A stretch of 21,664 nucleotides of DNA from a bacterium (GCA_046331705.1 JAXLQJ010000009.1:186001-207664); one strand, 5' to 3'. Shown: positions 6,943-21,556, counted from the first letter of the stretch. Numbers and translations are program-made. Notes: generated by a model not told the origin, from the sequence alone.

Positions 6943-7670
6943 CGCCCGGCACGCGGGGCGAGGGGATCGAGGCGGGCGAGCGCGCGGCGATCGACGCGAT
7001 GGAGCGCGCGCGCCCCCGAGCGAGTCGCCGCCGCCTGCACCACCGCGCCGTTGGCGGCGAGCTTCCGGAACGCGGGGCCGAAGCCCTGGGCGCCGCCGGC
7101 GACGGCCGTCCACGCGCGGCGCAGCTCGGTCACGTCGAAGCGTCGCGGCAGGAGGTCGAAGAGCAACGGCGAGCGTCCCAGCCGATCGCGCCAGTGAAGC
7201 ACCGCCCAGCGCACCAGCTCGCCGTGGTCGAAGGCCAGCGCCGGCAGCGCATCCGGTGAAAACCAGTCGGCGGCGGCGGCATCGTCGCCGGCCTTCACCG
7301 CGGCGGCGCGGGTCGGGAGCGCTGCCGTGTAGAGCGCGGTGACCGTGTGGCCCCGCGGATCGCGTCCGGGAGTGCCGATCACGCCGACCTGCTCGAGGCG
7401 CACGCCGCGGACACCCGTTTCCTCCGCGAGCTCGCGAGCCGCGGCGGCAGGGAGGTCCTCGTCGCGATCGACGAAGCCACCCGGCAAGGCCCAGGTGTCC
7501 GCGAACGGCGGACGGCCGCGACGGATGAGCAACACCTCGACGCGCGGCGCGCGAGCTTCCGCTGCCAGCCGGAAGAGTGCCACGTCCGCCGTCACCGACG
7601 GGCGCGGCCACTCGTACACGAAGCGTCCCGGCCCAGCCGGCGAACCGCTCGGGATGGATGCAGTCGACAT
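6939..7670 (-). CDS. NUDIX hydrolase, NrtR-like (NUDIX + degenerate C-terminal winged HTH)
   Basis: YEWPRPSVTADV, WALPGGFVDRDEDLPAAAARELAEETGV (complete Nudix box), PGRDPRG, AGDDA, LAFDH, then LLPRRFDVTEL. It is the 3' end of the 6939..9482 track ORF, with ATG at 7670. Confidence 0.88.
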   Translation of the reverse strand: MSTASIPSGSPAGPGRFVYEWPRPSVTADVALFRLAAEARAPRVEVLLIRRGRPPFADTWALPGGFVDRDEDLPAAAARELAEETGVRGVRLEQVGVIGTPGRDPRGHTVTALYTAALPTRAAAVKAGDDAAAADWFSPDALPALAFDHGELVRWAVLHWRDRLGRSPLLFDLLPRRFDVTELRRAWTAVAGGAQGFGPAFRKLAANGAVVQAAATRSGARALHRVDRRALARLDPLAPRAGR

Positions 7671-7679
7671 GAGGGGCGA

Positions 7680-7708
7680 AGGTTCCCGCGCGTGCATACC
7701 CACGTCAA
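7680..7708 (-). promoter_or_regulatory. Putative sigma70-type promoter for the NUDIX-GT4 pair (near-leaderless)
   Basis: Minus strand TTGACG (7708-7703)-N17-GAACCT (7685-7680), 9 nt before ATG 7670; no Shine-Dalgarno seen. Confidence 0.4.
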
Positions 7709-7913
7709 GGCCGACCGAGGCTCGGCCGGCCGCGGCGCGCGGCGAACACGCGCGCGCAACCCACGCGGACGTCGAGCCTGCGCCCCGAGGGACGCGGCGG
7801 CGCGCCCGCGGGGGCGCGGCGGCACCGTCGCCGTGCGCCGTGTTTCGAGCTGGCCCCCGTGGATTCCTCGGGTTTCGCGCGTGTTTCGCACGCGTCTCGC
7901 GGACGACCGCGCG

Positions 7914-7929
7914 CGGCATGCGAGTTGCG
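7914..7929 (+). promoter_or_regulatory. Putative sigma54 (-24/-12) promoter for comM
   Basis: CGGCATGCGAGTTGCG: GG-N10-GC with TTGC, close to consensus TGGCACGNNNNTTGC; ends 14 nt before ATG 7944. Confidence 0.6.
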
Positions 7930-7943
7930 CTGCGCCAGGCACC

Positions 7944-9527
7944 ATGTCGAGCGCCACTTCTCCCGACGATCGGCCCGAAGCGCCGCCAACCGCGCGGGCT
8001 CCCGCGAAGGTGTGGTCCGGCACGCTTCATGGCGTTGCTGGCCATCCGATTCGCGTGGAGGTCGACGCGCGTCCGAACGGGCTCCCGTCCTTCCAAACCG
8101 TGGGCCTGCCCGACGGCGCGGTGCGCGAGGGCAAGGATCGAATCCGCGCCGCCGTTCGCCACGCCGGCTTCTCTTTCCCCGAAGGACCGGTCACCGTGAA
8201 CCTCGCGCCCGCCGATCTGCGCAAGGACGGCACCGCGCTCGATCTGCCGATCGCGCTCGGGATCCTGGTCGCGTGCGGCGCGGTGCCGGGCACCCGGCTC
8301 GCCGACCACCTCGTGCTCGGCGAGCTCGGCCTCGACGGGACGATCCAGCCCATTCGCGGCGCGCTCTGCCTCGCCGCGGCCGCGAACGAGGCAGGCGTGT
8401 CGCACGTCGTGGTGCCCGCCGAGAACGCGGTGGAAGCGGCCCTCGTCGAAGGAGTGCGCGTCCTCGCCGCGCGGCATCTGCAGGACGTGGCGCGGCATTT
8501 CGCTGGCGACGAGGAGCTGCCCGTGGTGGCGCGGAAGCTGCCCGTGCTCGACGAGGTGAGCCGAAGCCGGGCGCCGGACCTCACGCGCATTCGCGGCCAG
8601 GCCGCCGCCAAGCGCGCGCTGGCGATCGCCGCCGCCGGTGGCCACAACCTGCTCATGATCGGCCCACCCGGCTCGGGAAAGACGCTGCTGGCGCGGGCGC
8701 TGCCCGGGATCCTGCCGCCCATGACGTTCACCGAGGCGATCGAGGCGACTCAGATCCACTCGGTCGCGGGGCGCCTGCGCGCCGGCTCCGGCTTGCTCAC
8801 CGAGCGCCCGTTTCGCTCGCCACACCACACGATCTCCGACGCTGGACTCGCCGGCGGCGGCGGCGTGCCCCGGCCTGGCGAGGTCAGCCTCGCCCACCAC
8901 GGCGTGCTGTTCCTCGACGAGCTGCCGGAGTTCCGGCGCGGAGTGCTCGAGGTGCTGCGCCAGCCCCTCGAGGACGGCCGCGTGGCGATCGGGCGCGCCG
9001 CCATCACCATCGCGTATCCCGCGCGCTTCATGCTGGTCGCCGCGATGAACCCGTGCCCGTGCGGCTACCGAGGCGACCCGCACCGCGCCTGCGTGTGCGA
9101 CCCCGGCGAGGTGCGGCGCTACCGCGGCCGCATCTCCGGGCCGCTCCTCGATCGCATCGACCTCACCGTCCACGTGCCGGCGCCGTCCTACGACGAGCTC
9201 AACGGCCCGCCATCGGGCACCGACAGCGCCGCCGCGCGCACCGAGATCGTGGAAGCGCGGGTGCGTCAGCGGCTGCGCTTCGGCGACGACGAGACCACCA
9301 CCAACGCCGTCATGGACGAAGCCCAGCTCGAGCGCTGGTGCGTCCTCGGCGGCGACGCCGCCGCGCTGCTCAAGCGCGCCATGGATCGATTCAAGCTCTC
9401 GGCGCGCGCCCACGCGCGCATCCTCAAGGTGTCCCGAACCATCGCCGATCTCGCGGCGCACGATCGCATCGACGTCGCCCACGTCGCGGAAGCGATCCAG
9501 CTGCGCTGCTGGGAGGAACCGTCATGA
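7944..9527 (+). CDS. comM: ComM/YifB family Mg-chelatase-like AAA+ ATPase (DNA branch-migration helicase)
   Basis: VGLPDGAVRE, VTVNLAPADLRKDG, GELGLDG, GGHNLLMIGPPGSGKT, RPFRSPHH, PGEVSLAHHGVLFLDELPEF, AMNPCPCG, SGPLLDRID, LSARAHARILKVSRTIADL. Confidence 0.96.
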   Translation: MSSATSPDDRPEAPPTARAPAKVWSGTLHGVAGHPIRVEVDARPNGLPSFQTVGLPDGAVREGKDRIRAAVRHAGFSFPEGPVTVNLAPADLRKDGTALDLPIALGILVACGAVPGTRLADHLVLGELGLDGTIQPIRGALCLAAAANEAGVSHVVVPAENAVEAALVEGVRVLAARHLQDVARHFAGDEELPVVARKLPVLDEVSRSRAPDLTRIRGQAAAKRALAIAAAGGHNLLMIGPPGSGKTLLARALPGILPPMTFTEAIEATQIHSVAGRLRAGSGLLTERPFRSPHHTISDAGLAGGGGVPRPGEVSLAHHGVLFLDELPEFRRGVLEVLRQPLEDGRVAIGRAAITIAYPARFMLVAAMNPCPCGYRGDPHRACVCDPGEVRRYRGRISGPLLDRIDLTVHVPAPSYDELNGPPSGTDSAAARTEIVEARVRQRLRFGDDETTTNAVMDEAQLERWCVLGGDAAALLKRAMDRFKLSARAHARILKVSRTIADLAAHDRIDVAHVAEAIQLRCWEEPS

Positions 9528-9709
9528 AATACGTCTGGAACATCGTGGAACGCGAAGGCATGGAACGCCCGTTCTGGAACCGCATCGGGGTGGCGTTCGA
9601 GAACTCCGACGGCTCGCTCAACGTGCGACTCGATTGCCTGCCCTTGAACGGCAAGCTCCACATCCGCGACCGCAAGGAGCAAGAGCGCGGCCCCGAGCCG
9701 CCGGGGTGA
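9524..9709 (+). CDS. 61-aa small protein of unknown function (W.RIG.AF.N.DGS....LD..P..G pattern)
   Basis: ATG overlaps the comM stop (ATGA); GGAGGA SD at 9512-9517; GC3-rich codons; MKYVWNIVEREGMERPFWNRIGVAFENSDGSLNVRLDCLPLNGKLHIRDRKEQERGPEPPG. Hidden at the end of the 7859..9709 track ORF. Confidence 0.85.
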   Translation: MKYVWNIVEREGMERPFWNRIGVAFENSDGSLNVRLDCLPLNGKLHIRDRKEQERGPEPPG

Positions 9710-9873
9710 GTCCACGCACGGCGGCGGGTCCCGCCGCTCGCGCGCGACGCCGAGCGGCACCCCTCAGGCGCGTTCCGACGCACGACCGCCTTCGCTCGGC
9801 GCCGGCGAAGCGGCGTCCTCGACCGACGGCGCTTGCTGGGCTCGTGGCGGCGTGGTAGCCCCGGCGGCTCGCC

Positions 9874-10881
9874 ATGGGCCGATCCCATTCATCCCGAGCT
9901 GCGCCGACACGAGCGCTCGAGCTGCGGCCGATCCGCGTGCCGGGCGTTCGCATCGGGCACGCGACCGACGCGGTCGGTGGCACGGGCGTCACGGTGGTGC
10001 TGGCCGAGGACGGCGCGATCGCGGGCGCGCACGTCGCGGGCTTCGCTTCGGGCACGCGCCAGGTCGACTCGCTCGAGCCCACGCACCTGGTGCCCACGGT
10101 GCACGCGATCGTGCTCGCGGGAGGCAGCGGCTTCGGCCTCGACGCCTCCCAGGGCGCGGCGGCGTACCTGGAGGAGCGCGGACGCGGCTTCCCGGTCGGT
10201 CGGCGGGTGGTGCCGATCGTGCCCACGGCGGTGCTCTTCGACCTCAACGTCGGCGACGCCCGCGCCGTGCCCACTCCCGCGATGGCACGCGCGGCCTGCG
10301 AGACCGCGCGTGCCGATCGTGTGGCCGTGGGCTGCGTCGGCGCGGGGACCGGCGCCACCTGCGGCAAGCTCCTCGGCGTCGCGTGCGCCACCAAGGGTGG
10401 GCTCGGGATCGCCACGGGCACGCTTCCCGATGGCACCGCGCTGCTGGCCCTGGCGGTGGTCAATCCATACGGCGACGTCGTCGACCCGCTGAGCGGCCGT
10501 CCCATCGCCGGCACGCGGCGCGCACCGAGGTCGCGTGCGCTCGCCGGCTCGACGCGGCTGATCCGCGATCCGAAGCGCATCCAGCGCGCGAGCTTTCAGA
10601 ACACGACGCTGGTGGTGGTCGCGACCGACGCGCGGCTCGACAAGCTCGGTGCGTCGCGGCTCGCGCGCATGGCGGCCTCCGGGATGCTGCGCGCGCTCGG
10701 GCCCGCGCCCACGCTCTACGACGGCGACGTGGTGTTCGCGCTCTCCACCGGCGAGCGCGCCGCCGATCCCAACGCCCTGGGCGCCTGCGCCGCGGATCTG
10801 GTGAGCGAGGCGATCGTCGACGCGGCCCGGACCGCGACCCCGATGTTCGGCCTTCCCGCGGCGCGCGACCTACGCCCCTGA
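9874..10881 (+). CDS. P1 family (DmpA/S58-like) self-processing peptidase / Ntn-like hydrolase
   Basis: VPGVRIGHATD, GTGVTVVL, GTRQ, HAIVLAGGSGFGLDA, VPIVPTAVLFDL, VGAGTGATCGK, NPYGD, NTTLVVVATDA (N|T cleavage-site type), DGDVVFALSTG. The exact start is uncertain. Confidence 0.92.
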   Translation: MGRSHSSRAAPTRALELRPIRVPGVRIGHATDAVGGTGVTVVLAEDGAIAGAHVAGFASGTRQVDSLEPTHLVPTVHAIVLAGGSGFGLDASQGAAAYLEERGRGFPVGRRVVPIVPTAVLFDLNVGDARAVPTPAMARAACETARADRVAVGCVGAGTGATCGKLLGVACATKGGLGIATGTLPDGTALLALAVVNPYGDVVDPLSGRPIAGTRRAPRSRALAGSTRLIRDPKRIQRASFQNTTLVVVATDARLDKLGASRLARMAASGMLRALGPAPTLYDGDVVFALSTGERAADPNALGACAADLVSEAIVDAARTATPMFGLPAARDLRP

Positions 10882-10925: not shown

Positions 10926-11432
10926 TCACGCGATCGGCTGATCGAAGCGCTTCGCGGCGAGCTCGACGCGGGTCATCGGCGCCGAGCGCCGACACGTGCC
11001 GCACTCGCCTTCGATCCCCGTCTCCATGAGCTCGGGCGGCACGAGGATCACACCGTACTGATCGCATTTGCGGCAGCGGAACTCGACCAGGACGGCACCG
11101 CGGGGATCGAGGTCCGCGGTGAGTGGCACGCTGCGCAGACGCGCGATCGGCTCGGGCGCGGGCTTGGGCGGCTTCGCTGGCGTGGTCGCCGCTTGGGGTG
11201 GCGAGACCGCGGCGCGTGGCTCGGCGCCGTCGCTTTGGGCCGCGTCGAGCGCGCTCGCGGCGGCCTGCGTCTCGGGCGCACCGGCGTCCCACGGCTGCCG
11301 GCTCGATCCGGGATCATCCAGCGATGGCGCCGGCGCCGCGGACGCGATCCCCAGCAGCACTTCACCGCATTTCCTGCACGTCGCGCGTTCCGCTTGCACG
11401 AAACCGCAGCGTTCGCAGCGCACCGATCTCAC
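10926..11432 (-). CDS. 168-aa protein with two predicted C4 zinc ribbons joined by a Pro/Ala-rich linker
   Basis: GTG 11432 overlaps the AAA gene TGA (GTGA), with GGAGG upstream. CERC-x9-CRKC at the N-terminus and CRKC-x20-CGTC near the C-terminus. It is the 3' part of the 10926..12122 track ORF. Confidence 0.75.
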   Translation of the reverse strand: MRSVRCERCGFVQAERATCRKCGEVLLGIASAAPAPSLDDPGSSRQPWDAGAPETQAAASALDAAQSDGAEPRAAVSPPQAATTPAKPPKPAPEPIARLRSVPLTADLDPRGAVLVEFRCRKCDQYGVILVPPELMETGIEGECGTCRRSAPMTRVELAAKRFDQPIA

Positions 11433-13012
11433 GCATCCTCCGTCGCGGGCCGTTCCACGTCCGCCAGCGTCTCCGCGATCATGTCCTTGAGCCGATTGTC
11501 GAGGCACGCGGGGCGCGCGCGCTTCTCCGCCCACTCGCGCAGCTGGTCGATCTGCTCGGCCATCGTGACCGCAAGCGGCACCGAGCCCTTCATCGCCACC
11601 AGCACGTCCTTCGTCCCGGGCTCGCGGCCATCGGCGAAGGTCTCGTAGCACGCCGCCAGCACGGCTTGCTCGATCTCCGAGCCCGTGAGGCCTGCGGAGG
11701 CACGCGCTAGCGTCGCCAGGTCGAGCTGCGCTGGATCGAGCCGCCGCTTGGCGAGATGGATCGCGAGAATCTGCCGGCGCTCGGCGAGCGTCGGCAGGTC
11801 CACGAAGAAGATCTCGTCGAAGCGGCCTTTGCGGACCAGCTCCGCGGGCAAGCGATCGACGCGGTTCGCGGTCGCCGCCACGAAGACCGGCGCTTTCTTC
11901 TCTTGCATCCACGTGAGGAAGGTCGCGAGCGCGCGCGCCACCGCGCCTTCGCCCTCGCCGCCCGCGTCCGCGAACCCTTTCTCGAGCTCGTCCACCCACA
12001 GCACCACCGGCGCCAGCTTCTCGGCCACCACCAGCGCGCGCTTGAGGCCCTCGTCGCGCCCCTGGCGCTCGGCCCGGATCACCGCGCTCAGATCGAGACG
12101 CACCAGCGGGAAACCCCAGCAATCGGCGATCGCGCGCGACGCCAGGCTCTTGCCGCAGCCCTGGACGCCTAGCAGCAAGAGCCCGGCGGGCGTGGGCAAG
12201 CCGCGGGCGCGGGCCGCCTCGCCGAAAGCCTCGCGGCGACGCTCGATCCAGCGCTTGAGCTCGTCGAGGCCGCCCACGTCACCGAGCCCGAGGCCGGGAT
12301 CCACGAACTCGAGAAGCTCCGAGCGCGCCAGCACGCGGCGCTTCTCGGCGACGATGGCGCGCACCACGTCGTGCTCGGGCGCCCGCGCCACACCGAATGC
12401 CCGCGCCAGCACCCGCGCCGCGGCGCGCTCGGTGAGCCCGAGCAGCGCGCGCTCGATGCGCTCGGCGAGGTCGCGGGCGCCGGGGTCGGCGTCGCCGGCC
12501 GCCCCCGCCGCCGAGGCCGCCGCCGCGGGACGCCAGCGCGCGAGCGCGGCCTTCACCAGCGGACGAAGGTCGCGCCCGTCGGGCAACGGCAGCTCGACGA
12601 TCGCCACCTCGCGCTCGAGCTCCGCCGGCACCACCAGCACCGACGAGAGCAAGAGGATCGCCGAGCGGCGTTCGCCGAGAAGCTCGGCCAGCTCGCGCAG
12701 CCGCCGCACGATCCACGAATCGCCGAGATGGCGGTGGAAGTCGCGCAGCACGAACCAGGTCGGCGCCTCCACCGTGGCGATGTGCTCGAGCAGCGCGCGT
12801 GCGTCGCCGAAACGCGCGGACTCGCCGGCCGCCGCGTCGCTGCCCTCGAGCCCGCGGGTCTCGCTCCAGCCCAGCACCGCCACGCGTGCGCGCTTGGCGA
12901 GGCCGCGGACGTTGCGCTCCCAGCGCGCCTCCTCGGCCGTCACCAGGTAGACGAGCGTATGCCCCGAGCCGAGAAGGGCGTGCAGCTCGTCGAGAGCGGT
13001 GGTGGTGGACAC
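11429..13012 (-). CDS. AAA+ ATPase, Ycf46-like family
   Basis: [29 protein letters not shown], Walker A GVQGCGKS, Walker [54 protein letters not shown]. Confidence 0.93.
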
Positions 13013-13038
13013 GGTGGTGGCGGCGTGGAGGGCGCCCG

Positions 13039-13044
13039 AGTCTA
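13039..13044 (-). promoter_or_regulatory. Possible -10 element for the AAA/zinc-ribbon pair
   Basis: TAGACT on the minus strand, 26 nt upstream of GTG 13012; no convincing -35. Confidence 0.3.
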
Positions 13045-13172
13045 CCGCGATCGGCCCCGAGATCTACTCGCCGCGTGCCGAGCGCAGCCGCCCGACCTCC
13101 CGCGAGCGGTGTGCGATCACGGCGCAGCGTCAGCCGCCCGAGCGCCTCCCCCCGAGGTCGTGGAAGCACCGG

Positions 13173-13198
13173 TGTAACGGTGGCGAAGGTCGCGCGAC
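13173..13198 (+). promoter_or_regulatory. Possible ECF-sigma promoter for the DUF692 operon
   Basis: TGTAAC (13173-13178)-N16-CGAC (13195-13198), ~105 nt upstream of ATG 13303; resembles the AAC/CGnn architecture of ECF promoters. Confidence 0.35.
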
Positions 13199-13302
13199 TG
13201 TCGAAGCAGATCTCGCACGGTCCGCCCCGGACCCCGCCGGGACGGGCTTGCTATCCGTCGACGGCATCGGGGAGACTGGCCACTCGACCGGTACACGACG
13301 CC

Positions 13303-14196
13303 ATGACGCGATCCTTGGACATTCCGGCGCTCGGGCACGGCCTCGGCCTGCGCACCGTCCACTACCCCGACATCCTCGGGGGCTCGCCGCGCGTCGACTG
13401 GTTCGAGATCATCTCCGAGAACTTCATGATCCGCGGCGGGCGCCCGCTGTGGGTGCTCGAGCAGGTGCGCGCCCGCTTCCCGATCGTGATGCACGGCGTG
13501 TCGCTCTCGATCGGCTCCACCGATCCCCTCGACCTCGACTACCTGGGCGAGCTTCGCGAGCTGGTGCGGCGCGTCGAGCCGGCGCTGGTCTCCGATCACC
13601 TGTGCTGGACCGGTGTGGGCGGCCACAACACCCACGATCTGCTGCCGCTGCCCTACACCGAGGAGACGCTCGCGCACGTCGCCGAGCGCGTGCTGCGGGT
13701 CCAGGACTTCCTCGGGCGACGCATCCTGATCGAGAACCCGTCGAGCTACATGCGCTTTCGCGCCTCGACGATGACCGAATGGGAGTTCCTCGCGGCGCTC
13801 GCCGCGCGCGCCGACTGCCTGCTGCTGCTCGACGTGAACAACGTGTACGTGAGCGCATTCAACCACGACTTCGACGCCGACGCGTACCTGGCCGGCATCC
13901 CCGCCGAGCGCGTCGCTCAGTTTCACCTCGCGGGCCACACGAATCACGGCCGCTACATCCTGGACACCCACGACCACCCCATCATCGATCCGGTGTGGCA
14001 GCTCTACGAGCGCGCGGTCGAGCGTTTCGGCCCGGTGAGCACCCTCATCGAGCGCGACGACCACATCCCGCCCCTCGCCGAGCTGGAGCGCGAGCTGGAT
14101 CAGGCGCGCCGCATCGCGGAGACCGCACATGCCCGACGCCGGCTGGAATCTCGACCGCACCGAGCGCCTGTTGTGGCGGCTCATCACGGCGCCTGA
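13303..14196 (+). CDS. DUF692 family multinuclear non-heme iron oxidative enzyme (MNIO; BufB/HvfB-like)
   Basis: [70 protein letters not shown]: the expected metal-ligand motifs are present. ATG at 13303. Confidence 0.95.
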
Positions 14197-15038: not shown

Positions 15039-15776
15039 GTGCCAGCCGTCGCCCCGCATGCCGAGCCGCCCTTCGGCGAGCGGCTCGCGTACACGACGCC
15101 ACGCGCCCTCGCGCTGGCGGCGATCGCCGCGCTGCTCGCCTATCCGTCGAGCCTGGTCCTGGCCTCGCGGAACCCGGGGCATCTGCCCGAGGGGCTGGCT
15201 GTGGGCGCGGTCGCCGGCGCGCAAGCGCTGCTGGTCGGCGTCGAGGTCGCGCTGGCTGCGTTCATCGGTCTCATGTGGCGGCAGCGCGCCGGGCTCCCGG
15301 GGTTGCGGCGTGCGCCCACCGCGCCACGGCCGTTGATCCAGCTACCGGCATTCGTCGTCACCGGCGCCGCGCTCGGCGCACTGTCCGGGTTCGCGTTCGA
15401 CCGTGCCCACGCCGCTGCCGCGCCGGGCCTCTACGCGGCGAACGGCGCCGAGGCGCTGGCGCTCTACGCCGGCTCGGTGCTGAGCCAGGAAGCGGTCGCG
15501 CGGATGTGCTTCCTGACGATCCTCGCCGCGCTGCTCGATCGACCGCGCGCGGCGCTCGTGCTGCACGCGCTCTGGACCACGTTCTTCACGTTCACCCTCG
15601 AGCAGCGCTTTCTTCACGCCAGCGCCACGCCCACGGGCCTCGACTGGTGCGGTCTCGCCTTCGGCCTCGCCGCCAACCTGATCTTCGGGGGCGCTTACGC
15701 GAGTCACGGGCTCGCGGGCGCCGTCGTCACCCACGCCGCCTGGAACCTGAAGCTGCTGGTGGTGCGCGCCGGCTGA
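15039..15776 (+). CDS. CPBP (CAAX protease/Abi)-like integral membrane protein with degenerate catalytic motifs
   Basis: About 7 hydrophobic segments; QEAVAR in place of EExxxR; C-terminal FGGAYASHGLAGAVVTHAAWN (HxxxN); starts 4 nt after the DUF2063 stop. Confidence 0.65.
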   Translation: MPAVAPHAEPPFGERLAYTTPRALALAAIAALLAYPSSLVLASRNPGHLPEGLAVGAVAGAQALLVGVEVALAAFIGLMWRQRAGLPGLRRAPTAPRPLIQLPAFVVTGAALGALSGFAFDRAHAAAAPGLYAANGAEALALYAGSVLSQEAVARMCFLTILAALLDRPRAALVLHALWTTFFTFTLEQRFLHASATPTGLDWCGLAFGLAANLIFGGAYASHGLAGAVVTHAAWNLKLLVVRAG

Positions 15777-15840: not shown

Positions 15841-16809
15841 TCACGGCGGCTCGACGAGATGGAGGTCGACGTCGGGAGCGCGGGCGCCGGAGTCGGAGAC
15901 GATGACGCGCACCCTGGGCAGGATCTCCTCGAGGGTCTCGAGGTAGAGCCGATCGCGGGTTCGCTCCGGCGCATGGCGGTACTCGGCCAGCACCGACAGG
16001 AAGCGATCGCTCTCGCCCTTGGCCGCCTGGATGCGGGCGTCGGCCACCGCCTTGGCCTGCGAGACCACGCCCTGCGCCTCGCCGCGCGCCTTGGGAAGCA
16101 GGTCGTTCGCATAGCCCTTGGCGGCGTTGACGAGGCGACCGCGCTCCGCCTCGGCGTCCTGGACCTGGCGAAACGCGGTGCGCACCGGGCTCGCGGGATC
16201 GATGGACTTGAAGCTCGCGGTGACGATGCGGATCCCCACGCCGTACGCATCGAGGCGAGCGTTGGCGCCCTTCTTGACGCGCTCCAGCACCTCGTTCTGC
16301 CCGGCGGTGAGGACGTGGTCCACGTCCATCTGGCTCAACGTCTCGGTGAAGGCACCCTCGGCGGCGCGCCGCAGCACCAGCCCCGCTTGCTCGGCACCGG
16401 CGTAGAGGTAACGGGCGGGATCCTCGACCACGTACTGAAACACCGCACGCACTTCCACGATGTTGGTGTTGCCCGTCAGCCATTGCGTCTCGGTGGGCGT
16501 CGGGCTGAGCCCGCGTAGATCGTCCGAGATCTTGAAGCCAACGCTCATCGACATGGGCTCGGCGGTCTTGACCTTGGCGGCCCGGCCGAGCGGCGGCGGC
16601 AGGTTCCAGTGGACTCCCGGCGGCACGTGGTCGGAGACGACGCGCCCCAGCGCGATCGCGACGCCCACTTCGCCGGCGCTCGATCTCACCGTGTAGAAGC
16701 CGGTCGCGAGCCACCCCGCGACGACGGCGAGCGCCACGACGAGCGCCGCACGCACCGCGCGCGAGGGCGCGGCGCGTGGTGCCGCCGCGGGCGCTCCCGG
16801 CTCGCTCAC
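15841..16809 (-). CDS. hflK: HflK-like SPFH/band-7 protein
   Basis: Single N-terminal TM then WLATGFYTV, PGVHWNLPPPL, WLTGNTNIVEV, VRTAFRQVQDA, AKGYANDLLPKARGEA, YRHAPERTRDRLYLETLEEIL; GTG overlaps the hflC TGA. Confidence 0.92.
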   Translation of the reverse strand: MSEPGAPAAAPRAAPSRAVRAALVVALAVVAGWLATGFYTVRSSAGEVGVAIALGRVVSDHVPPGVHWNLPPPLGRAAKVKTAEPMSMSVGFKISDDLRGLSPTPTETQWLTGNTNIVEVRAVFQYVVEDPARYLYAGAEQAGLVLRRAAEGAFTETLSQMDVDHVLTAGQNEVLERVKKGANARLDAYGVGIRIVTASFKSIDPASPVRTAFRQVQDAEAERGRLVNAAKGYANDLLPKARGEAQGVVSQAKAVADARIQAAKGESDRFLSVLAEYRHAPERTRDRLYLETLEEILPRVRVIVSDSGARAPDVDLHLVEPP

Positions 16810-17720
16810 GGCTGCTTCCCCGCCGACCGCGGCGTCTCGGCCGCCTGCCCCCGCGTCAGCAGGCGCATGAGCTCGCTGTCACCGGGCAGCACCAGCGTGG
16901 TCTGAGGATCGAGGATCTTCCGATACGCCTGGAGCGTGCGCAGGTAGCGGTAGAACTCGGGGTCCTTGGCCAGCGCCTCACCGAAGATGCGCGTCGCCTC
17001 CGCTTCGCCTTGACCGCGGACGCGCTCGGCCTCGGCGCGTGCCTCCGCGAGAATGCGGCTCTTCTCCTGGTCGGCCTCGGCGCGAATCTTGAGCGACTCC
17101 TCCTCGCCCTCGGAGCGGAAGCGCTTGGCGATGCGATCGCGCTCGGCGCGCATCCGGTCGAACACGCTCGACTGATTCTGATCGGGGAAGTTGAGCCGCT
17201 TGATGCGGACGTCGAGCACCTCGACGCCGTAGCGCGTGGCTTGGGTGGCGGCGGACTGGGTGATCGAGGCGAGCACGTCGCCGAGCCGATGCTCCTTCGG
17301 ATCCGTGCTCACCAGCTGCACGAACGGGACGCTTCCCAGCGCGGCGCCGAGCTCGGAGCCGATCACGATCCCGAGGCGCGCCTCGGCGCCCTTGACCGTG
17401 CCCACCGATTGAAGGAACGCCAGCGGATCGTGGATCCGCCAAACGCAATAGGTCTCGATGGTGACGTTGGTCTTGTCGTTGGTCAGGTACTCGGCTTGCG
17501 GTAGGTCGAGGACCTGCAGTCGGGCATCGAGGGTGGTGACGGTCTCGATGGGCGCCGGCAGCTTCCAGTGAAGCCCACGTTCCTCCGCGAGCACCACGCC
17601 GCGCAGCTTGCCGAGGCGCGTGATCACCGCGAACTCGGTGACGTCGACCACGAACAGGCACGACTGGATCACGAGCGCCGCGACCACGACGCCGATCAAC
17701 CCACGGACCCACGGCTTCAT
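16806..17720 (-). CDS. hflC: HflC-like SPFH/band-7 protein
   Basis: N-terminal TM, FVVDVTEFAVITRLGK, GLHWKLP, YLTNDK, WRIHDPLAF, DVRIKRLNFP, VFDRMRAERDRIAKRFRSEGEEES, DPEFYRYLRTLQAY; ATG 17720 with GAGGTG SD 6 nt upstream. Confidence 0.94.
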   Translation of the reverse strand: MKPWVRGLIGVVVAALVIQSCLFVVDVTEFAVITRLGKLRGVVLAEERGLHWKLPAPIETVTTLDARLQVLDLPQAEYLTNDKTNVTIETYCVWRIHDPLAFLQSVGTVKGAEARLGIVIGSELGAALGSVPFVQLVSTDPKEHRLGDVLASITQSAATQATRYGVEVLDVRIKRLNFPDQNQSSVFDRMRAERDRIAKRFRSEGEEESLKIRAEADQEKSRILAEARAEAERVRGQGEAEATRIFGEALAKDPEFYRYLRTLQAYRKILDPQTTLVLPGDSELMRLLTRGQAAETPRSAGKQP

Positions 17721-17730
17721 CGCGCCCACC

Positions 17731-20058
17731 TCATGGGTTCGGTCCGGGGTTTGCCCCAGAGCCCGAGCCTCGCTTCAACGCCTTCAAGAACGGGCTTTCC
17801 GGCGCGGCTTCCTCGCCGCCGCCGTTGGCACTCACGCCCGGCGCGCGCCCTCCCGCTGGCGCGGCGTTCCCGGCGTCGCCTCGGCCCGCCGCGGGCATCA
17901 TCCAGAGATCGAGAGCCCCCGCGCCGGCCACACCCGGCCGCACCACCTTGCGCACCCCGGGCAACACCGTTTCCATCGTTTCCAGGTAGAGGCGCAGCTC
18001 GGTGAGATCGCGGAACGCGGCGAAAGCGTCGGCCTGCGCGCCGAACGCGCCGGCCTCCGCCGCAGCGCGCGCGATCTCGGAGGTGCGCGCACCGGCGGCG
18101 TCGAGCAGCGACTTCGCCGCCTCGCCGCGCGCCTTGGGCAACGTCTCCTCGGTGTAGCCGCGCGCGGTCTGCTCGGCGGTGAGCGCTTCCTCGCGCGCCG
18201 ACGCCACGTCGCGGAAATTCCAGTGCACCAAGGTCGGCGCGTGCACCTCGAGGAGCGCGACGCGGATGACCTCGATGCCGGAGCCGTAGGAGTCGAGCTC
18301 GCGTTGCACCAGGCGGTGGGTGTTGGCCTCGACCGCGGCGCGGCCCTCGGAATAGATCTCGTCGATGGGCCGGTCCCCGATCACCTCGACCATCGCCGAA
18401 CGGGTGGTCGCGCGCACCAGCGCCTCGGGATCGGCGACCCCGAAGCCGAACGCCACCGGATCCTTGGCGCGGTACTCGACGGTGAGATTGATGTCGATGA
18501 TGTTCTCGTCGCCCGTCAGGAAATAGCCTTCGCGCGGCTCCTTCACCCGCCGCGCCTCCGCGCCGGCGGCCCGCGCGGGATCGGGCGCCACCGTGCGAAA
18601 GCCCACGTCCAGCGTGCGCGACTGATCCACCGCGACCACGCTGCCGCGCGCGAACGGCACCGGGGCGTGCAGGTAGCTGCCCGCGCCCAGATCGCGCGCC
18701 ACGATCCGGCCGAAGCGCACGATCGCCCCGCGTTCGCCGGGGCGCACCGTGAGCAGACCGGTGAGCAACCAACCCACCACGGCGATCACGCCTGCCGCGG
18801 CGCCCAAGCGCCGGCGCGTGATCGCAAGCCCGAGCCAGCGCTCGCAGCGCTCGCCGAGTCGCACGAACTCGGGCGGCACGGGCGCTCGCGCGACGCTCGT
18901 CGCGAGCAAGACCACGAAGACCAGCGCCGACGCCAGTCGTAGCGCCATCGGCATGCCGCCCTCGCCACCGAGCGCGAGCATCGGCTTGATCCCCGTGGAC
19001 GCGATCACCAAGTCGAGCAAGGCGCCGAAGGCGATGCTCAGCACGGCCACCACCGTCACGTAGATCGCCACCACGCGCTTGCCGAGGAACTTCGTGAGCA
19101 TGACCATCGAGCCGACGTTGGTCGCCGGGCCGGTGAGCAGGAACACGAGCGCCGCTCCCGGGCTCATGCCTTTCGCCATGAGCGACGCGGCGATGGGCGT
19201 CGAGGCCGACGCGCAGATGTAGAGCGGGATCCCGATCAACGCCATCATCAGCATCGGGGTCACGCCGCGGCCCAAGAAGCGCTCCACCACCGTCGCCGGC
19301 ACGAACGCCGACACCAGCGCGCTCACCACCAAGCCCGCCAGCAGCCAATGCGAGAGATCGTCGAGCAGATCGACGAACCCGTAGCGCAGCGCACGCCGAA
19401 ACCAGCCGCCCGACGCGGGCGGCGGCACGACGTCGAGCCCCACGACCTCGCTCTCGCCGGCGTCGGGTCCGTGGGCGTGGCCGTGGTCGTGGTCGTGATC
19501 GTGGTCGACGAGCGCCGACGCCGGGCTCGGTGTCGCCGCGTCGCCGGCCAGGTTCTCGGCGCAACACGGGTCGACGACCGTCGTCGCAGCGGGCGCGGCG
19601 TCGGCGTCCGCCTTGCCCTGCGCCGCGTCGTCGCGGTCGCTTCCGCCGCCCTCGATCTCCACGGCGAGGCCCGCGACCAGTGCGGTCACGAACGCCGCGA
19701 GCGGCCGGAAGAGCGCCATCAGCCAGCCCATGAGCCCGTACGTCAGCGCGATCGAATCGACCCCGGTCTCCGGCGTGGACACCAGGAACGACACCGTGGC
19801 GCCGCGGCTCGCGCCGCGCCGTCGCAGCGCGATCGCCGTCGGCACCACCGAGCACGAGCACAGCGGCAGGGGCACGCCGACCAGCGAGGCGAGCACGATC
19901 GGTCGGACCCGCCCCTTGCCCAGCAGCCGCTGGATCAGCCGCGCCGGCACGAGCGCGTGCAGCAGGCCCGCCACCGCGAAACCGAAGAGCAGGAAGAACG
20001 ACGCCTCGCGAAACACCAACCACAGCTCGCGCGCGAAGCGCAGCAGGAATTCGAGCAT
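17731..20058 (-). CDS. Fusion protein: DUF318/ArsP-superfamily (SO_0444-like) putative metal permease + C-terminal HflK/SPFH domain
   Basis: aa ~1-390: GVPLPLCSCSVVP, FLVSTPETGVDSI, loop with PCCA and DHDHDHDHGHAHG, GIPLYICASASTPIA, GAALVFLLTGPATN. aa ~415-775: TM + TVRPGERGAIVRFGR, FLTGDENIIDI, FRDVASARE, LPKARGEA, RLYLETMETVL. One uninterrupted 775-aa frame. Confidence 0.92.
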   Translation of the reverse strand: MLEFLLRFARELWLVFREASFFLLFGFAVAGLLHALVPARLIQRLLGKGRVRPIVLASLVGVPLPLCSCSVVPTAIALRRRGASRGATVSFLVSTPETGVDSIALTYGLMGWLMALFRPLAAFVTALVAGLAVEIEGGGSDRDDAAQGKADADAAPAATTVVDPCCAENLAGDAATPSPASALVDHDHDHDHGHAHGPDAGESEVVGLDVVPPPASGGWFRRALRYGFVDLLDDLSHWLLAGLVVSALVSAFVPATVVERFLGRGVTPMLMMALIGIPLYICASASTPIAASLMAKGMSPGAALVFLLTGPATNVGSMVMLTKFLGKRVVAIYVTVVAVLSIAFGALLDLVIASTGIKPMLALGGEGGMPMALRLASALVFVVLLATSVARAPVPPEFVRLGERCERWLGLAITRRRLGAAAGVIAVVGWLLTGLLTVRPGERGAIVRFGRIVARDLGAGSYLHAPVPFARGSVVAVDQSRTLDVGFRTVAPDPARAAGAEARRVKEPREGYFLTGDENIIDINLTVEYRAKDPVAFGFGVADPEALVRATTRSAMVEVIGDRPIDEIYSEGRAAVEANTHRLVQRELDSYGSGIEVIRVALLEVHAPTLVHWNFRDVASAREEALTAEQTARGYTEETLPKARGEAAKSLLDAAGARTSEIARAAAEAGAFGAQADAFAAFRDLTELRLYLETMETVLPGVRKVVRPGVAGAGALDLWMMPAAGRGDAGNAAPAGGRAPGVSANGGGEEAAPESPFLKALKRGSGSGANPGPNP

Positions 20059-20097
20059 GTTCGAGTCCGGATCGCGACGAGCCCCGGCGTCGAGCCG

Positions 20098-20106
20098 AGC
20101 ATAGCA
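20098..20106 (-). promoter_or_regulatory. Extended -10 promoter for the permease-hflK/hflC/hflK operon
   Basis: Minus strand TG-C-TATGCT (20106-20098), a close match to TGnTATAAT in a very GC-rich context, ~40 nt upstream of ATG 20058. Confidence 0.55.
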
Positions 20107-20184
20107 GGCGATTCCGCGGCTTCCGTTCGCGACGGCCGAACGCCTCGGGGCCGCGCGTCCGAGGGTGGGACGGCGCGGCGGCTC

Positions 20185-20213
20185 TTGATCCCGCGTCGTT
20201 CCTCCATTACCTC
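20185..20213 (+). promoter_or_regulatory. Possible sigma70-type promoter for the 63-aa ORF and PLP enzyme
   Basis: TTGATC (20185-20190)-N17-TACCTC (20208-20213); imperfect -10. Confidence 0.3.
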
Positions 20214-20243
20214 TTGGCGGTTTCGCATCCGGAGGAACGAACC

Positions 20244-20435
20244 ATGAACGCCAAGCGTGCCCGTCTGCTGCGCAAGTTCGCGAGCTCCACCAAGCGCGAC
20301 CCGAGCGAGGTCAAGGACCTCTGGAAGACGATCCCCCGCACCGCGCCGCGCGCCGAGGAGAAGAACGACTCCGACGCCAGCCGCCGGTCGCTCGGCGCCG
20401 AGATCCGCCGCACCCTCGCCCGCGACGACGACTGA
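20244..20435 (+). CDS. 63-aa charged small protein of unknown function
   Basis: GGAGGA SD at 20231-20236, ATG 20244, strongly GC3-biased codons; MNAKRARLLRKFASSTKRDPSEVKDLWKTIPRTAPRAEEKNDSDASRRSLGAEIRRTLARDDD. Confidence 0.75.
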   Translation: MNAKRARLLRKFASSTKRDPSEVKDLWKTIPRTAPRAEEKNDSDASRRSLGAEIRRTLARDDD

Positions 20436-20452: not shown

Positions 20453-21556
20453 ATGACCACCGGCCCGGCGCTGTTCCGCTTCGATCCCCGCTTCGCCGCC
20501 GCGTTCGCGCACCATCCCATCCTCGCCGGGCCGACGCCGGTCCAGCCGCTCGAACGGCTGAGCCGTGAGGTCGGCGGGCCGTCGATCTGGATCAAGCGCG
20601 ACGATCTCTCGAACCCGCTCTACGGCGGCAACAAGCCCCGCAAGCTCGAGTTCCTTCTCGGCGACGTGCAGCGCCGCGGCGCTCGCTCGGTCGTCACCTT
20701 CGGAGTGGTCGGCAGCCATCACGCGCTCGCGACCGCGTTGCACGCGCGCGCCATCGGCGTCGACACCACCGCGGTGCTCGTGCAGGGGCCGCTCCATCCC
20801 CATGCCATCGAGAATCTGCGCCGGACCTGCCTGCACGCCACGCGCACGCTCTATCTCGACTGGGCGCACGCTCCCGCGGTCGCCGGCGCGCTCTGCGCCA
20901 CCTTCGTCGGTCCCATCAACCGGCCCTACCTGATCCCGCCCGGTGGCTCGTCGCCGCTCGGCAATCTCGGCTACGTGTCGGCGGCCCTCGAGCTGGCCGA
21001 GCAGGTGCGCGCCGGCGAGATGCCGAAGCCGGATTACGTGTACGTCCCCGCGGGCAGTCTGGGGACGCTCGCGGGCCTGGTGGTGGGGTTCGCGCTCGCG
21101 CGCCTCGAGACTTGGGTGGTCGGCGTGGCCGTGCTGGGACCGCCCAGCGTCACCACCGACCGCGCCAATCGCCTGGTTCGGCGCGTGCGCCGGCGGCTGA
21201 TCGAAGCATCCCCGGACGTCGAGCGCATCGGCGCGGGCTTCGAGCGACTGAGCCTGCGGTTCGGCGCGCTCGGGCGTGGCTACGGACACGCGACGCCCGA
21301 AGCGACCGAGGCCGCGCGGCACCTCGCCGAGCTCGAGGACGTGAAGCTCGACACCACGTACACCGCGAAGGCCATGGCCGGCATGCTCGAGCAGATCCCG
21401 CAGCCCAGCTTCCAGGGCAAGACGGTGCTCTTCTGGCACACCTTGAGCCGCGCCGCGCCCGCCGAGGACGCGGCCACGCTCGCGGCCGTGCGGCTCCCGG
21501 CGCCGCTCGACACCCTGGTCGCACGCGCCGAACGACGCGCCGCGTTCGCAGGCTGA
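20453..21556 (+). CDS. PLP-dependent D-cysteine desulfhydrase/ACC deaminase family protein
   Basis: PTPVQPL, IWIKRDDLS, YGGNKPRKLEFLL (PLP Lys), GSHHALATA, IPPGGSSPLGNLGYV, GSLGTLAGL, LDTTYTAKA. Confidence 0.92.
   Translation: MTTGPALFRFDPRFAAAFAHHPILAGPTPVQPLERLSREVGGPSIWIKRDDLSNPLYGGNKPRKLEFLLGDVQRRGARSVVTFGVVGSHHALATALHARAIGVDTTAVLVQGPLHPHAIENLRRTCLHATRTLYLDWAHAPAVAGALCATFVGPINRPYLIPPGGSSPLGNLGYVSAALELAEQVRAGEMPKPDYVYVPAGSLGTLAGLVVGFALARLETWVVGVAVLGPPSVTTDRANRLVRRVRRRLIEASPDVERIGAGFERLSLRFGALGRGYGHATPEATEAARHLAELEDVKLDTTYTAKAMAGMLEQIPQPSFQGKTVLFWHTLSRAAPAEDAATLAAVRLPAPLDTLVARAERRAAFAG

Follow-up and report, generated by a model that had tools for sequence, protein, structure and literature searches.

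On the minus strand of the window (the whole stretch of bacterial DNA analysed here, 21,664 nt), three tightly packed ORFs occupy positions 15841-20058, each translating without stops. The first encodes an SO_0444-family permease fused to HflK, the second HflC, and the third another, unfused HflK (table 1), a composition that had been proposed from the sequence alone and that ORFs, translations and family scores confirm. The packing described in that sequence-only reading is also borne out by the DNA at both junctions. The stop codon of gene 1 (TGA, 17731-17733) is followed by 10 nt, GGTGGGCGCG, after which gene 2 begins with an ATG at 17720 or, alternatively, with the in-frame GTG at 17729. 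Genes 2 and 3 overlap as GTGA at 16806-16809, which contains the stop codon of the former and the GTG start codon of the latter. GC3 phase indicates coding in all three frames, with values of 0.88-0.89. In the divergent intergenic region no sigma-70-like site was found, and the search for an operator returned a 9-nt GC palindrome as the sole palindrome, so that neither promoter nor operator was found in this interval. The operon is flanked by a PALP enzyme and a small ORF on one side and by an MNIO cluster on the other.

Table 1. Features of the three-gene operon and of the region 5′ of it
Feature	Position (nt)	Strand	Evidence
Gene 1, permease::HflK fusion, 775 aa (P0001)	17731..20058	-	ORF, translation, NF033936 and TIGR01933 above cut-offs, ArsP_1 and Band_7
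Permease domain, aa 13-387, with C67-S68-C69 motif and second half-repeat motif (PLYICASAS region)	18898..20022	-	NF033936 range
Disordered His/Asp-rich loop between permease halves, aa 142-214, DHDHDHDHGHAH and CC pair	19417..19635	-	sequence, pLDDT
Linker, aa 388-414	18817..18897	-	hydropathy, charge count, DSSP of model, invariant columns
HflK TM helix, aa 415-436, predicted cytoplasm to periplasm	18751..18816	-	hydropathy 420-438; model helix 415-432
HflK SPFH domain, coiled coil and C-terminal strands, aa 437-706	17941..18750	-	TIGR01933 range
Gene 2, HflC paralogue, N-terminal TM helix then SPFH	16806..17720	-	TIGR01932, junction, cassette-HflC clade (97)
Gene 3, free HflK paralogue, 322 aa (P0003), N-terminal TM helix then SPFH	15841..16809	-	TIGR01933, E. 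coli HflK alignment
Divergent intergenic region 5′ of operon	20059..20243	.	sequence

The N-terminal half of the fusion matches NF033936, the 'SO_0444 family Cu/Zn efflux transporter', with 386.1 bits (equivalog cut-off 300 bits) over residues 13-387 and model positions 2-349 of 351. In Pfam terms gene 1 combines ArsP_1 (PF03773), called DUF318 in the earlier reading, with Band_7. Seven permease columns are invariant in 25 fusion proteins: C67, S68 and C69, C282, and S286, T287 and P288. Such a full set of family-invariant motifs, together with a score above the equivalog cut-off, is what would be expected of a working transporter. The loop between the two permease halves has a pLDDT below 50 in the predicted model, and its HxHxHxH motif is retained in the consensus of the 25 fusions. 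The His-rich loop and the invariant CSC motif are a further link of the fusion with zinc.

The 'efflux' label of the fused permease rests on analogy with stand-alone relatives. SO_0444 of Shewanella oneidensis is reported to be required for the growth of cells stressed with ZnSO4 or CuCl2 (PMC3219624), expression of another family member is reported to be induced by Cd and Cu (PMC10092412), and CSC is given as the signature motif of the family (bioRxiv 10.1101/2022.07.06.499078). The N-terminal 387 residues of gene 1 thus resemble SO_0444 in score and in keeping CSC. The S. oneidensis protein is however a stand-alone one encoded beside a ZntR-like regulator (PMC3219624), whereas here the permease is fused to HflK and no MerR/ZntR-type neighbour was seen at the operon.

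The linker that follows is rich in positive charge (seven Lys/Arg in the stretch 390-419), contains a predicted helix (396-409, DSSP of the model) and has five residues that are invariant in the 25 fusions, S388, R391, P395, E397 and G410; its sequence suggests that it lies on the cytoplasmic side. The next hydrophobic helix aligns with the TM region of E. coli HflK and leads into the SPFH half, which scores 164.3 bits against TIGR01933 (HflK; equivalog cut-off 159.4 bits) over residues 437-706. The closest solved structures for this half are E. coli HflK chains (9cz2_XA, 7vhq_E and 7wi3_B, 28% identity). The database names 'SO_0444 family Cu/Zn efflux transporter' and 'HflK protein' each cover only half of the gene 1 product.

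Gene 2, which sits between the two HflK-type genes, scores 211.7 bits against TIGR01932 (HflC; equivalog cut-off 134.4 bits), and gene 3, with 173.7 bits, is likewise above the TIGR01933 cut-off and aligns to residues 69-349 of E. coli HflK. Both products begin with a short basic N-terminus followed by a hydrophobic helix. Gene 3 and the fusion are both predicted to have the N-in TM helix and periplasmic SPFH/coiled-coil body by which HflK is recognised, and in the predicted topology the SPFH bodies of all three proteins face the periplasm. The operon thus shares with the E. coli HflK/HflC-FtsH system (PDB 7vhp/7vhq, 7wi3, 9cz2) the N-terminal TM helix and periplasmic SPFH/coiled-coil body of its HflK- and HflC-type subunits, as well as neighbouring, translationally coupled genes, and E. 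coli HflK is the best match in sequence and fold for both gene 3 and the C-terminal half of gene 1. Unlike E. coli HflK/C, which has two subunit types, it encodes three, one HflK carries a multi-helix N-terminal transporter, there is no hflX alongside, and the lineages fall outside the housekeeping clades. Residues R141, E142 and R185 of E. coli HflK are reported as implicated in FtsH contact (PMC13220708). In our alignments the R141/E142 loop is variable even among housekeeping HflK, and the position of R185 is of little discriminating value, being Arg in 9/13 housekeeping, 11/23 free and 8/24 fused HflK.

In E. coli the gene order is hflX-hflK-hflC. That order does not occur here: neither ftsH nor hflX lies inside the window, as had been noted beforehand, and both are located elsewhere in the genome, ftsH in three full copies (contigs C50, C11 and C10) and hflX about 90 kb from the operon on the same contig (C9, the nearest match) and on C5. 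According to the TIGRFAM models, the operon is the only HflK/C both in the host genome and in 6/6 genomes of its order, all six of which carry the full-length fusion.

An apparent fusion could also arise by mis-assembly, or if a stop or frameshift separating a permease gene from hflK had been missed, and some long-read MAG loci do have frame problems (one is split, L038, and in another, L014, the frame continues into HflC). Here this explanation can be ruled out for practical purposes. The frame is single and open with uniform GC3, the linker residues are invariant, and contigs from further public sequencing runs span the point where permease and HflK meet (X6 record 20, 18510-19887; X7 record 28, 18527-19254) as well as the boundary between genes 1 and 2; these are independent, come from two other studies and carry 1-3 differences. 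Both domains, ArsP_1 and Band_7, moreover occur together in 120/120 database clusters among the matches listed.

The recurrence of this domain pair is accompanied by conservation of the cassette, so that the three-gene arrangement, which had been put forward from a single locus, holds elsewhere. Among 24 species genomes, which represent about ten phyla, 23 have the order fusion-HflC-HflK on one strand; in the remaining one the contig end cuts the locus. Where the contig permits, HflC and the free HflK are never absent (23/23 SO_0444 loci and 3/3 loci with a P1B-ATPase fusion), and all 56 stand-alone permease loci examined lack SPFH genes within 7 kb. No description of the permease::HflK cassette in print was found.

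The same cassette also stands behind other transporters. In 3/3 loci (L111-L113, two of which, L112 and L113, share the same ORF coordinates and scores and are perhaps a single sequence) HflC and HflK come after a fusion of a heavy-metal P1B-ATPase with HflK; an EamA::HflK fusion heads the same HflC-HflK cassette (L109), an unnamed membrane module is fused at the same position, and one locus (L106) has a weak, sub-threshold match to Cation_efflux (E 7e-4). The P1B and EamA cassettes have the gene order of the window, their HflC belong to the same clade as that of the window and their free HflK group with the window's free HflK, whereas the N-terminal transporter families are unrelated; in the searches made they were much rarer (1/4 clusters, 3 metagenome loci). 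The transporter is therefore interchangeable, as the sequence-only reading had supposed from P-type ATPase neighbours, with the difference that the P1B-ATPase is not merely adjacent to HflK but fused to it, as are EamA and the unnamed module.

The trees, which are based on hand-selected rows and on 'quick' and FastTree searches, separate the cassette from the housekeeping proteins. The 18 cassette HflC rows, taken from cassettes with SO_0444, P1B, EamA and the unnamed module, make up a single clade (SH-aLRT 97), with nine housekeeping HflC outside it; in FastTree the housekeeping HflC form one clade (99), and housekeeping HflK also form one clade (96; FastTree 98). Free and housekeeping HflK cluster together (97), and outside this cluster lie the fused HflK, the most divergent K-type; accordingly the free HflK of the window is nearer to housekeeping HflK than to fused HflK (97). 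None of the three proteins of the window lies inside the housekeeping HflK or HflC clade, which agrees with the separate SPFH phylogeny expected of them. In the FastTree set of 119 rows, fused K, C and free K divide into sub-clades that look congruent. The fused permease domains are clustered and not monophyletic, with six label changes, at least three of them forced.

The proposal of a paralogous, dedicated cage stands in part. On the one hand, the subunits lie outside the housekeeping clades, 16 of the 24 hosts of the cassette have a separate canonical hflK-hflC pair, and the cassette HflC clade is separate even in those hosts, which argues for a dedicated set of partners. On the other hand, the operon is the sole HflK/C in this genome, so that the term paralogue, which presupposes a housekeeping complex, does not apply here, nor does a second HflK/C accompany it in the 6/6 genomes of the order.

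Zinc-uptake genes adjoin the cassette in 14/24 loci, with ZIP beside it in nine and znuA-znuC-znuB downstream in five; in the window itself, no zinc gene flanks the operon. Importers beside a presumed exporter are an odd pairing. ZnuA, in these five loci, is the only periplasmic metal-binding partner conserved beside the cassette, and no Fur/Zur-family gene was found within 5 kb of the SO_0444 cassette in 25 genomes. The recurrence of ZIP and znuABC as neighbours points to a role in zinc homeostasis rather than in general Cu/Ni/Co/As resistance.

We consider it about an even chance that the operon encodes a specialised HflK/HflC-type SPFH cage that tethers a built-in metal exporter as its client. 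The Cu/Zn permease (SO_0444 family, ArsP_1) would end in the cytoplasm, from where the conserved basic linker and the HflK TM helix would lead to a complete periplasmic HflK body. HflC and the free HflK, the latter nearer to canonical HflK, would fill the remaining ring positions, so that the exporter domains, limited in number, would be placed at the membrane patch fenced by SPFH subunits or within it. We infer co-assembly, the subunit ratio, the placement of the permease with respect to the fence and the physiological effect, as well as a possible involvement of FtsH. The purpose would most likely be to control the exporter in zinc/metal homeostasis by confining and stabilising it; where FtsH is part of the cage, as it is in E. 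coli, the tethered exporter would also be turned over conditionally. E. coli HflK/C is reported to enclose FtsH hexamers and to exist also in open 'nautilus' forms (PMC12048511), and a solved entry (9zd2) has, by its title, aquaporin-1 bound to the human stomatin assembly. This assembly, QmcA-YbbJ (8z5g), prohibitin and erlin have in common, according to the entry titles, that SPFH subunits form a ring or dome above a patch of membrane with a channel, a protease or a partner. There the client is a separate polypeptide, whereas here it is covalently attached to one of the ring subunits, always with an unfused second paralogue encoded alongside.

The cassette might instead be primarily the HflK/C modulator of FtsH in this lineage, its permease-like domain and His-rich loop sensing metal and altering cage opening and thereby the access of FtsH to membrane substrates, with transport secondary. 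Such a role would suit a cassette that is the only HflK/C in this genome, which has three full FtsH, and in 6/6 genomes of the order, and whose free HflK is near canonical HflK, and open and closed states of E. coli HflK/C are reported to control FtsH substrates (PMC12048511, PMC13220708). However, 16/24 hosts retain the canonical pair as well, which means that the housekeeping role does not generally fall to the cassette; the permease looks like that of a working transporter, and unrelated exporters (P1B-ATPase, EamA) in the same position fit a client better than a sensor. We therefore regard the sensor as unlikely. It is quite unlikely that the exporters sit inside the ring and release metal under a periplasmic dome serving as a hand-over or buffer space, possibly reused by ZIP or ZnuABC. 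All named fused modules do belong to exporter families (SO_0444, P1B-ATPase, EamA/DMT and the weak Cation_efflux match), the SPFH bodies are predicted to be periplasmic and importer genes recur beside the cassette, but a closed chamber agrees poorly with the reported open 'nautilus' of E. coli HflK/C (PMC12048511) and with the scarcity of conserved periplasmic metal-binding neighbours, ZnuA excepted.

The three proteins could also form no joint complex, the fusion acting alone and using its SPFH part for its own oligomerisation or membrane-domain targeting, while HflC and the free HflK make an ordinary complex, with the linkage reflecting shared ancestry or co-regulation. HflC and the free HflK could make a canonical pair unaided, and the divergence of the fused HflK would agree with this; against it, however, stand their presence in all SO_0444 and P1B loci where the contig permits, the congruent-looking sub-clades and the separate cassette-HflC clade even in hosts with a canonical pair, and it appears improbable. 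Broader than the cage with a tethered exporter, and in our view a speculative and unlikely extension, would be a general client-tethering SPFH module that has been joined repeatedly to ArsP_1/SO_0444, P1B-ATPase, EamA/DMT and the unnamed module, a few exporters under the dome forming an export microcompartment. If this were true, the metal case may be a periplasmic hand-over or buffer space for zinc shared with the co-encoded ZIP/ZnuABC, and it would be a natural covalent proof that transporters are clients of SPFH cages.

How SPFH cages (HflK/C, stomatin, prohibitin, flotillin, erlin) affect the membrane proteins they enclose has long been an open question, and their clients are hard to define. 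Here the gene itself specifies the client, since a transporter is joined to a cage subunit and always accompanied by a free paralogue and HflC, and exporters of at least three unrelated families occur joined to the cassette. This provides a testable system for the position of a client relative to the fence, for the need of a mixed ring, and for control of client stability or activity by the cage with or without FtsH. The cassette would represent a previously undescribed layer of bacterial zinc/metal homeostasis in widespread environmental phyla, and it may be of clear interest for SPFH research as a possible natural case of a cage tethered to its client.

Gene 1 of the operon (protein P0001) joins a metal permease and an HflK in a single reading frame. 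It matches the model NF033936, 'SO_0444 family Cu/Zn efflux transporter', over residues 13-387 (386.1 bits, cut-off 300) and the HflK model TIGR01933 over residues 437-706 (164.3 bits, cut-off 159.4), and its Pfam domains are ArsP_1 and Band_7. Gene 2 is HflC (TIGR01932, 211.7 bits) and gene 3 is a second, free HflK (173.7 bits). The close packing described in the sequence-only reading matches the DNA as read: after the TGA of gene 1 come the 10 nt GGTGGGCGCG and then the ATG of gene 2, and the overlap between genes 2 and 3 is GTGA. GC3 is 0.88-0.89 in each of the three frames, in a window of 21,664 bp with about 72% G+C.

Features of the operon and its surroundings (window positions)
Feature	Position	Strand	Description
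Gene 1	17731-20058	-	ORF, 775 aa, translates without stops
Gene 2	16806-17729 (ATG at 17720)	-	ORF, translates without stops
Gene 3	15841-16809	-	ORF, translates without stops
63-aa Lys/Arg-rich ORF	20244-20435	+	Upstream, divergent; GGAGGAA ribosome-binding site; GC3 phase fits coding
PLP-dependent enzyme	20453-21556 (ATG at 20453)	+	Upstream, divergent; directly after the 63-aa ORF
245-aa membrane protein	15039-15776	+	Downstream, convergent; weak Rce1-like match
DUF2063 gene	ends 15034	+	Downstream, convergent
MNIO/MbnB-TglH-ChrH family gene	13303 region, ends 14196	+	Downstream, convergent; PF05114, 376 bits
527-aa AAA+ ATPase	11429-13012	-	PF00004; 3 kb from the operon
Rest of window	382-1947 (-), 2063-3013 (-), 5758-7611 (-), 7347-9527 (+)		Four genes, unrelated to the operon as far as seen

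The layout of gene 1 was derived from hydropathy and from an AlphaFold2 model built on 25 fusion proteins (mean pLDDT 69.6, pTM 0.50). The permease consists of two halves, with the conserved motifs PLPLCSCS (around C67-S68-C69) and PLYICASASTP (around C282), a His/Asp-rich disordered loop between them (142-214, pLDDT below 50) and a last helix at 371-391. The linker that follows has seven Lys/Arg within 390-419 and a short helix (396-409), and S388, R391, P395, E397 and G410 are invariant among the 25 fusion sequences; it leads to the HflK transmembrane helix (415-436), the SPFH domain, a long helix (609-681) and the C-terminal strands. Since the linker is basic and probably cytoplasmic, the HflK body should be periplasmic, as in canonical HflK, and the short basic stretch followed by one hydrophobic helix at the N-termini of genes 2 and 3 predicts the same orientation for these subunits. 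Foldseek places the C-terminal half of gene 1 next to E. coli HflK (chains 9cz2_XA, 7vhq_E and 7wi3_B, 28% identity), and it matched no solved structure to the permease half.

The idea that the fusion is an artefact was rejected as extremely improbable. Other public DNA runs have contigs that span the permease-HflK junction (X6 record 20, X7 record 28) and also the junction between genes 1 and 2 (X2 record 3, X6 record 18, X7 record 26), differing from the window at 0-3 positions, and the stretch is present in 20 runs of 11 studies, every one labelled as a sludge, wastewater or digester metagenome. Among 8000 candidates scored from a collection of 5.8 billion proteins, 919 pass E 0.001, and 120 of the 120 matches listed among these (query included) carry both PF01145 and PF03773; the database names, 'SO_0444 family Cu/Zn efflux transporter' or 'HflK protein', describe one half only. 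One metatranscriptome library (X20) has two contigs of 151 nt (records 10 and 11) that match the window exactly, one of which spans the junction of genes 1 and 2. They give a weak hint of operon transcription, in which DNA carry-over may have a part, and a lack of cover in X20 over other parts carries no information. Contig depth spikes (up to 996) at 19396-19549, a His/Asp codon repeat with many loose ends, in three of three DNA runs; this is a low-complexity stretch that other organisms share, and the spikes do not reflect copy number.

A scan of one genome per species yielded 80 loci, which were classified by an ORF/BLASTP script, and 24 of them (L013-L032, L034, L038, L063 and L092) contain the full fusion. 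They come from Zixibacteria, Alpha- and Betaproteobacteria, Gemmatimonadota, Phycisphaerae/Planctomycetota, Myxococcota, Binatia, Eiseniibacteriota, Spirochaetales, Acidobacteriota and 'Deltaproteobacteria', and the full-length fusion is found in six of six genomes of the window's order. The three-gene arrangement is indeed conserved elsewhere: the ORFs share one strand and run fusion, HflC-type, HflK-type in 23/24 loci; in the exception, L024, the contig ends inside HflC. One locus (L038) is broken by frameshifts, and in L014, from a long-read Alphaproteobacteria MAG, the permease::HflK frame continues in frame through HflC as a 1071-aa ORF (7001-10216, +), which is likely a lost stop or an indel error because a real triple fusion is topologically implausible. 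Around stand-alone permeases, an SPFH ORF within 7 kb was found in none of 56 loci. A same-genus relative (G026), the main copy of which lies on contig C8, carries a second, more divergent fusion copy on contig C50 (15011-17028; 47-61% identity to P0001); this second copy is broken across frames and contains one TGA. Proteobacterial loci have an extra HflC-like gene upstream of the fusion (L014 4869-6618, L015 2643-4723, L038 4769-5780), followed in L014 and L015 by an acetamidase/formamidase-family gene; the two that were placed in a tree form their own clade (100) within cassette-type HflC.

The relation of these subunits to housekeeping HflK/C was addressed by profile searches and trees. 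The window's genome (95.67% complete) has nine Band_7 matches, of which only the operon genes pass the HflK/HflC cut-offs, three full FtsH genes outside the window, and hflX about 90 kb away; in none of the six genomes of the order does an HflK-type match near the cut-off lie outside the cassette contig. Of the 24 other hosts, 16 have an HflK apart from the cassette that scores higher (205-321 bits) and has an HflC-like match beside it, the remaining eight being MAGs, where the absence of a separate pair proves nothing; 13 of the 16 pairs were used for trees. In FastTree (119 selected rows, fragment rows left out), housekeeping HflK and housekeeping HflC each form one clade (98 and 99), the fused HflK are grouped together (82), and another group (92) takes in 21 of the 23 free HflK. 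IQ-TREE in 'quick' mode (LG+C20; 71 selected rows from 27 sources) splits the K and C sides (99) and unites the 18 of 18 cassette HflC in one clade (97) that includes none of the nine housekeeping HflC. On the K side, housekeeping HflK (96) join 15 free cassette HflK (12 from SO_0444, two from P1B and one from EamA cassettes) in a clade (97); every fused HflK lies outside it, as do the free HflK of L106/L108. The sequence-only reading would have given way if the operon were the only hflKC of its genome and grouped with housekeeping HflK/C; the former is the case in this genome, and in the trees the operon does not group in this way.

Host genomes also hold other clusters in which a long protein::HflK-like gene is followed by HflC and then HflK. 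In L109 an EamA (DMT) transporter is N-terminal to HflK (PF00892, 69.3 bits). In L106-L108, from the Phycisphaerae genomes G010, G007 and G014, the N-terminal part is a common module, about 300 residues long, with several hydrophobic helices and a conserved stretch around DAINYQFGFEVSGTWFYQLL; it matches no Pfam/NCBIfam family except for a sub-threshold Cation_efflux match in L106 (E 7e-4), and the best score of an ESM Atlas search with it was 0.79, below lead level. L110, from genome G023, has a different unnamed N-terminal part. Three HflK/C systems coexist in the Gemmatimonadota genome G015: the SO_0444 cassette (L027), the EamA::HflK cassette (L109) and a canonical pair (L098). Longer relatives of the free HflK were four proteins, of which three are ArsP_1 fusions. 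The remaining one, P0126, has 1032 aa and joins a heavy-metal P1B-type ATPase (TIGR01525, 588.9 bits, residues 69-659) to an HflK part (159.3 bits, residues 703-990). A metagenome scan with P0126 gave three full-fusion loci, each continuing with HflC and then HflK (3/3); two of them, L112 and L113, have identical ORF coordinates and scores and are perhaps copies of one sequence. Since the HflC and free HflK of the P1B cassettes group with those of the SO_0444 cassettes in IQ-TREE, the cassette looks like a single lineage that received different exporters. Around the P1B cassette and the extra HflC in L014/L015 lie DUF1559, an acetamidase-family gene and a metallo-beta-lactamase fold, none of which suggests a clear connection. 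A single origin of the fused permease is not supported: the fused SO_0444 domains cluster among stand-alone permeases and are not monophyletic (six label changes, at least three forced), so that junctions were gained, lost or exchanged more than once.

By GC3 phase and Pfam the operon stands alone in the window, which holds no zinc gene, ftsH or hflX, and scans upstream of it for sigma-70-like promoters, operators, terminators and palindromes gave nothing usable. MNIO and DUF2063 pairs make copper-binding RiPPs (bufferins). No precursor peptide ORF for the MNIO cluster was seen among small ORFs at 12950-13450, and in the flanking-ORF clustering this cluster is not kept beside the cassette in other loci. 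The AAA+ ATPase has a weak FtsH-family AAA match (71 bits) with nothing past model position 375 of 598, and no link between it and the cassette was seen. The rest of the window encodes an outer-membrane efflux protein (OEP), two group-1 glycosyltransferases and a ComM/Mg-chelatase-like ATPase, unrelated as far as seen.

Recurrent neighbours in other genomes were identified by BLAST clustering of flanking stop-to-stop ORFs in high-GC DNA, followed by Pfam, and zinc-uptake genes adjoin the cassette in 14 of 24 loci. A ZIP transporter, identified by Pfam in four loci and by BLAST cluster membership in the others, is the neighbour in nine (L015-L018, L025, L027, L028, L030 and L038), abutting directly on the same strand upstream in L025/L027/L028/L030 and downstream in L016-L018; in five (L021, L023, L029, L063 and L092; two Pfam-checked) the free HflK is immediately followed downstream by znuA-znuC-znuB. 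Together with the His-rich loop, these neighbours point to zinc or another divalent metal. According to Table 1 and passages of PMC3219624, stand-alone SO_0444 is required for growth under ZnSO4 or CuCl2 stress and the defect was complemented, and passages of PMC10092412 rank a family member of Nitratiruptor with the genes that Cd and Cu induce most strongly. Three observations oppose a simple picture: the cassette neighbours are importers, the window is without such a neighbour, and no Fur/Zur-family gene lies within 5 kb of the SO_0444 cassette in 25 genomes, the nearest being 16 kb away (G018); G023 has one at 5 kb from its alternative cassette.

The reading with the best support, at a probability of about 0.5, is a dedicated ring of the HflK/HflC type to which an exporter is covalently tethered, and co-assembly of its subunits is our proposal. 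Never missing where the contig allows, and closer to canonical HflK, the free HflK would fill the K positions without a transporter; the steric reason for it offered in the sequence-only reading, the ratio of the subunits and the placing of the permease on one or the other side of the fence are each points that we infer. Apart from the artefact, the least likely alternative is that the three proteins form no joint complex. An export chamber under the dome is unlikely, and a metal-sensing input to the regulation of FtsH is also unlikely, if less so than the chamber. For self-association of the permease, a two-copy complex prediction of residues 1-400 scored 0.00, which is no answer and evidence neither way.

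In E. coli, according to passages of PMC12048511, a chamber lined by 24 SPFH domains encloses as many as four FtsH hexamers. The E. coli HflK triple mutant R141A/E142A/R185A shows less co-purification with FtsH, according to a passage of PMC13220708. When the window's HflK proteins were aligned to E. coli HflK and positions counted by hand, the equivalents were R99/G100/R147 in free HflK and R504/V505/R549 in fused HflK. The R141/E142 columns lack conservation even in the positive control, housekeeping HflK, and the R185 column, with Arg in 9/13 housekeeping, 11/23 free and 8/24 fused HflK, does not discriminate, so that the comparison speaks neither for nor against FtsH contact; 'Arg191' (Qiao et al., as quoted in an excerpt of PMC12048511) does not fall on an Arg by chain count.

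No description of a transporter::HflK fusion or of this cassette was found in the partly accessible literature, whose coverage leaves out most subscription journals, and the words 'transporter', 'permease' and 'fused' are absent from a comparative study of prokaryotic SPFH proteins (PMC2636767). For the ring with a tethered exporter, the most likely effect is that the stability or activity of the exporter would be controlled within metal homeostasis, possibly through FtsH, which degrades some membrane transporters, and the disordered His-rich loop could, speculatively, be a plausible metal-sensitive handle for such control.
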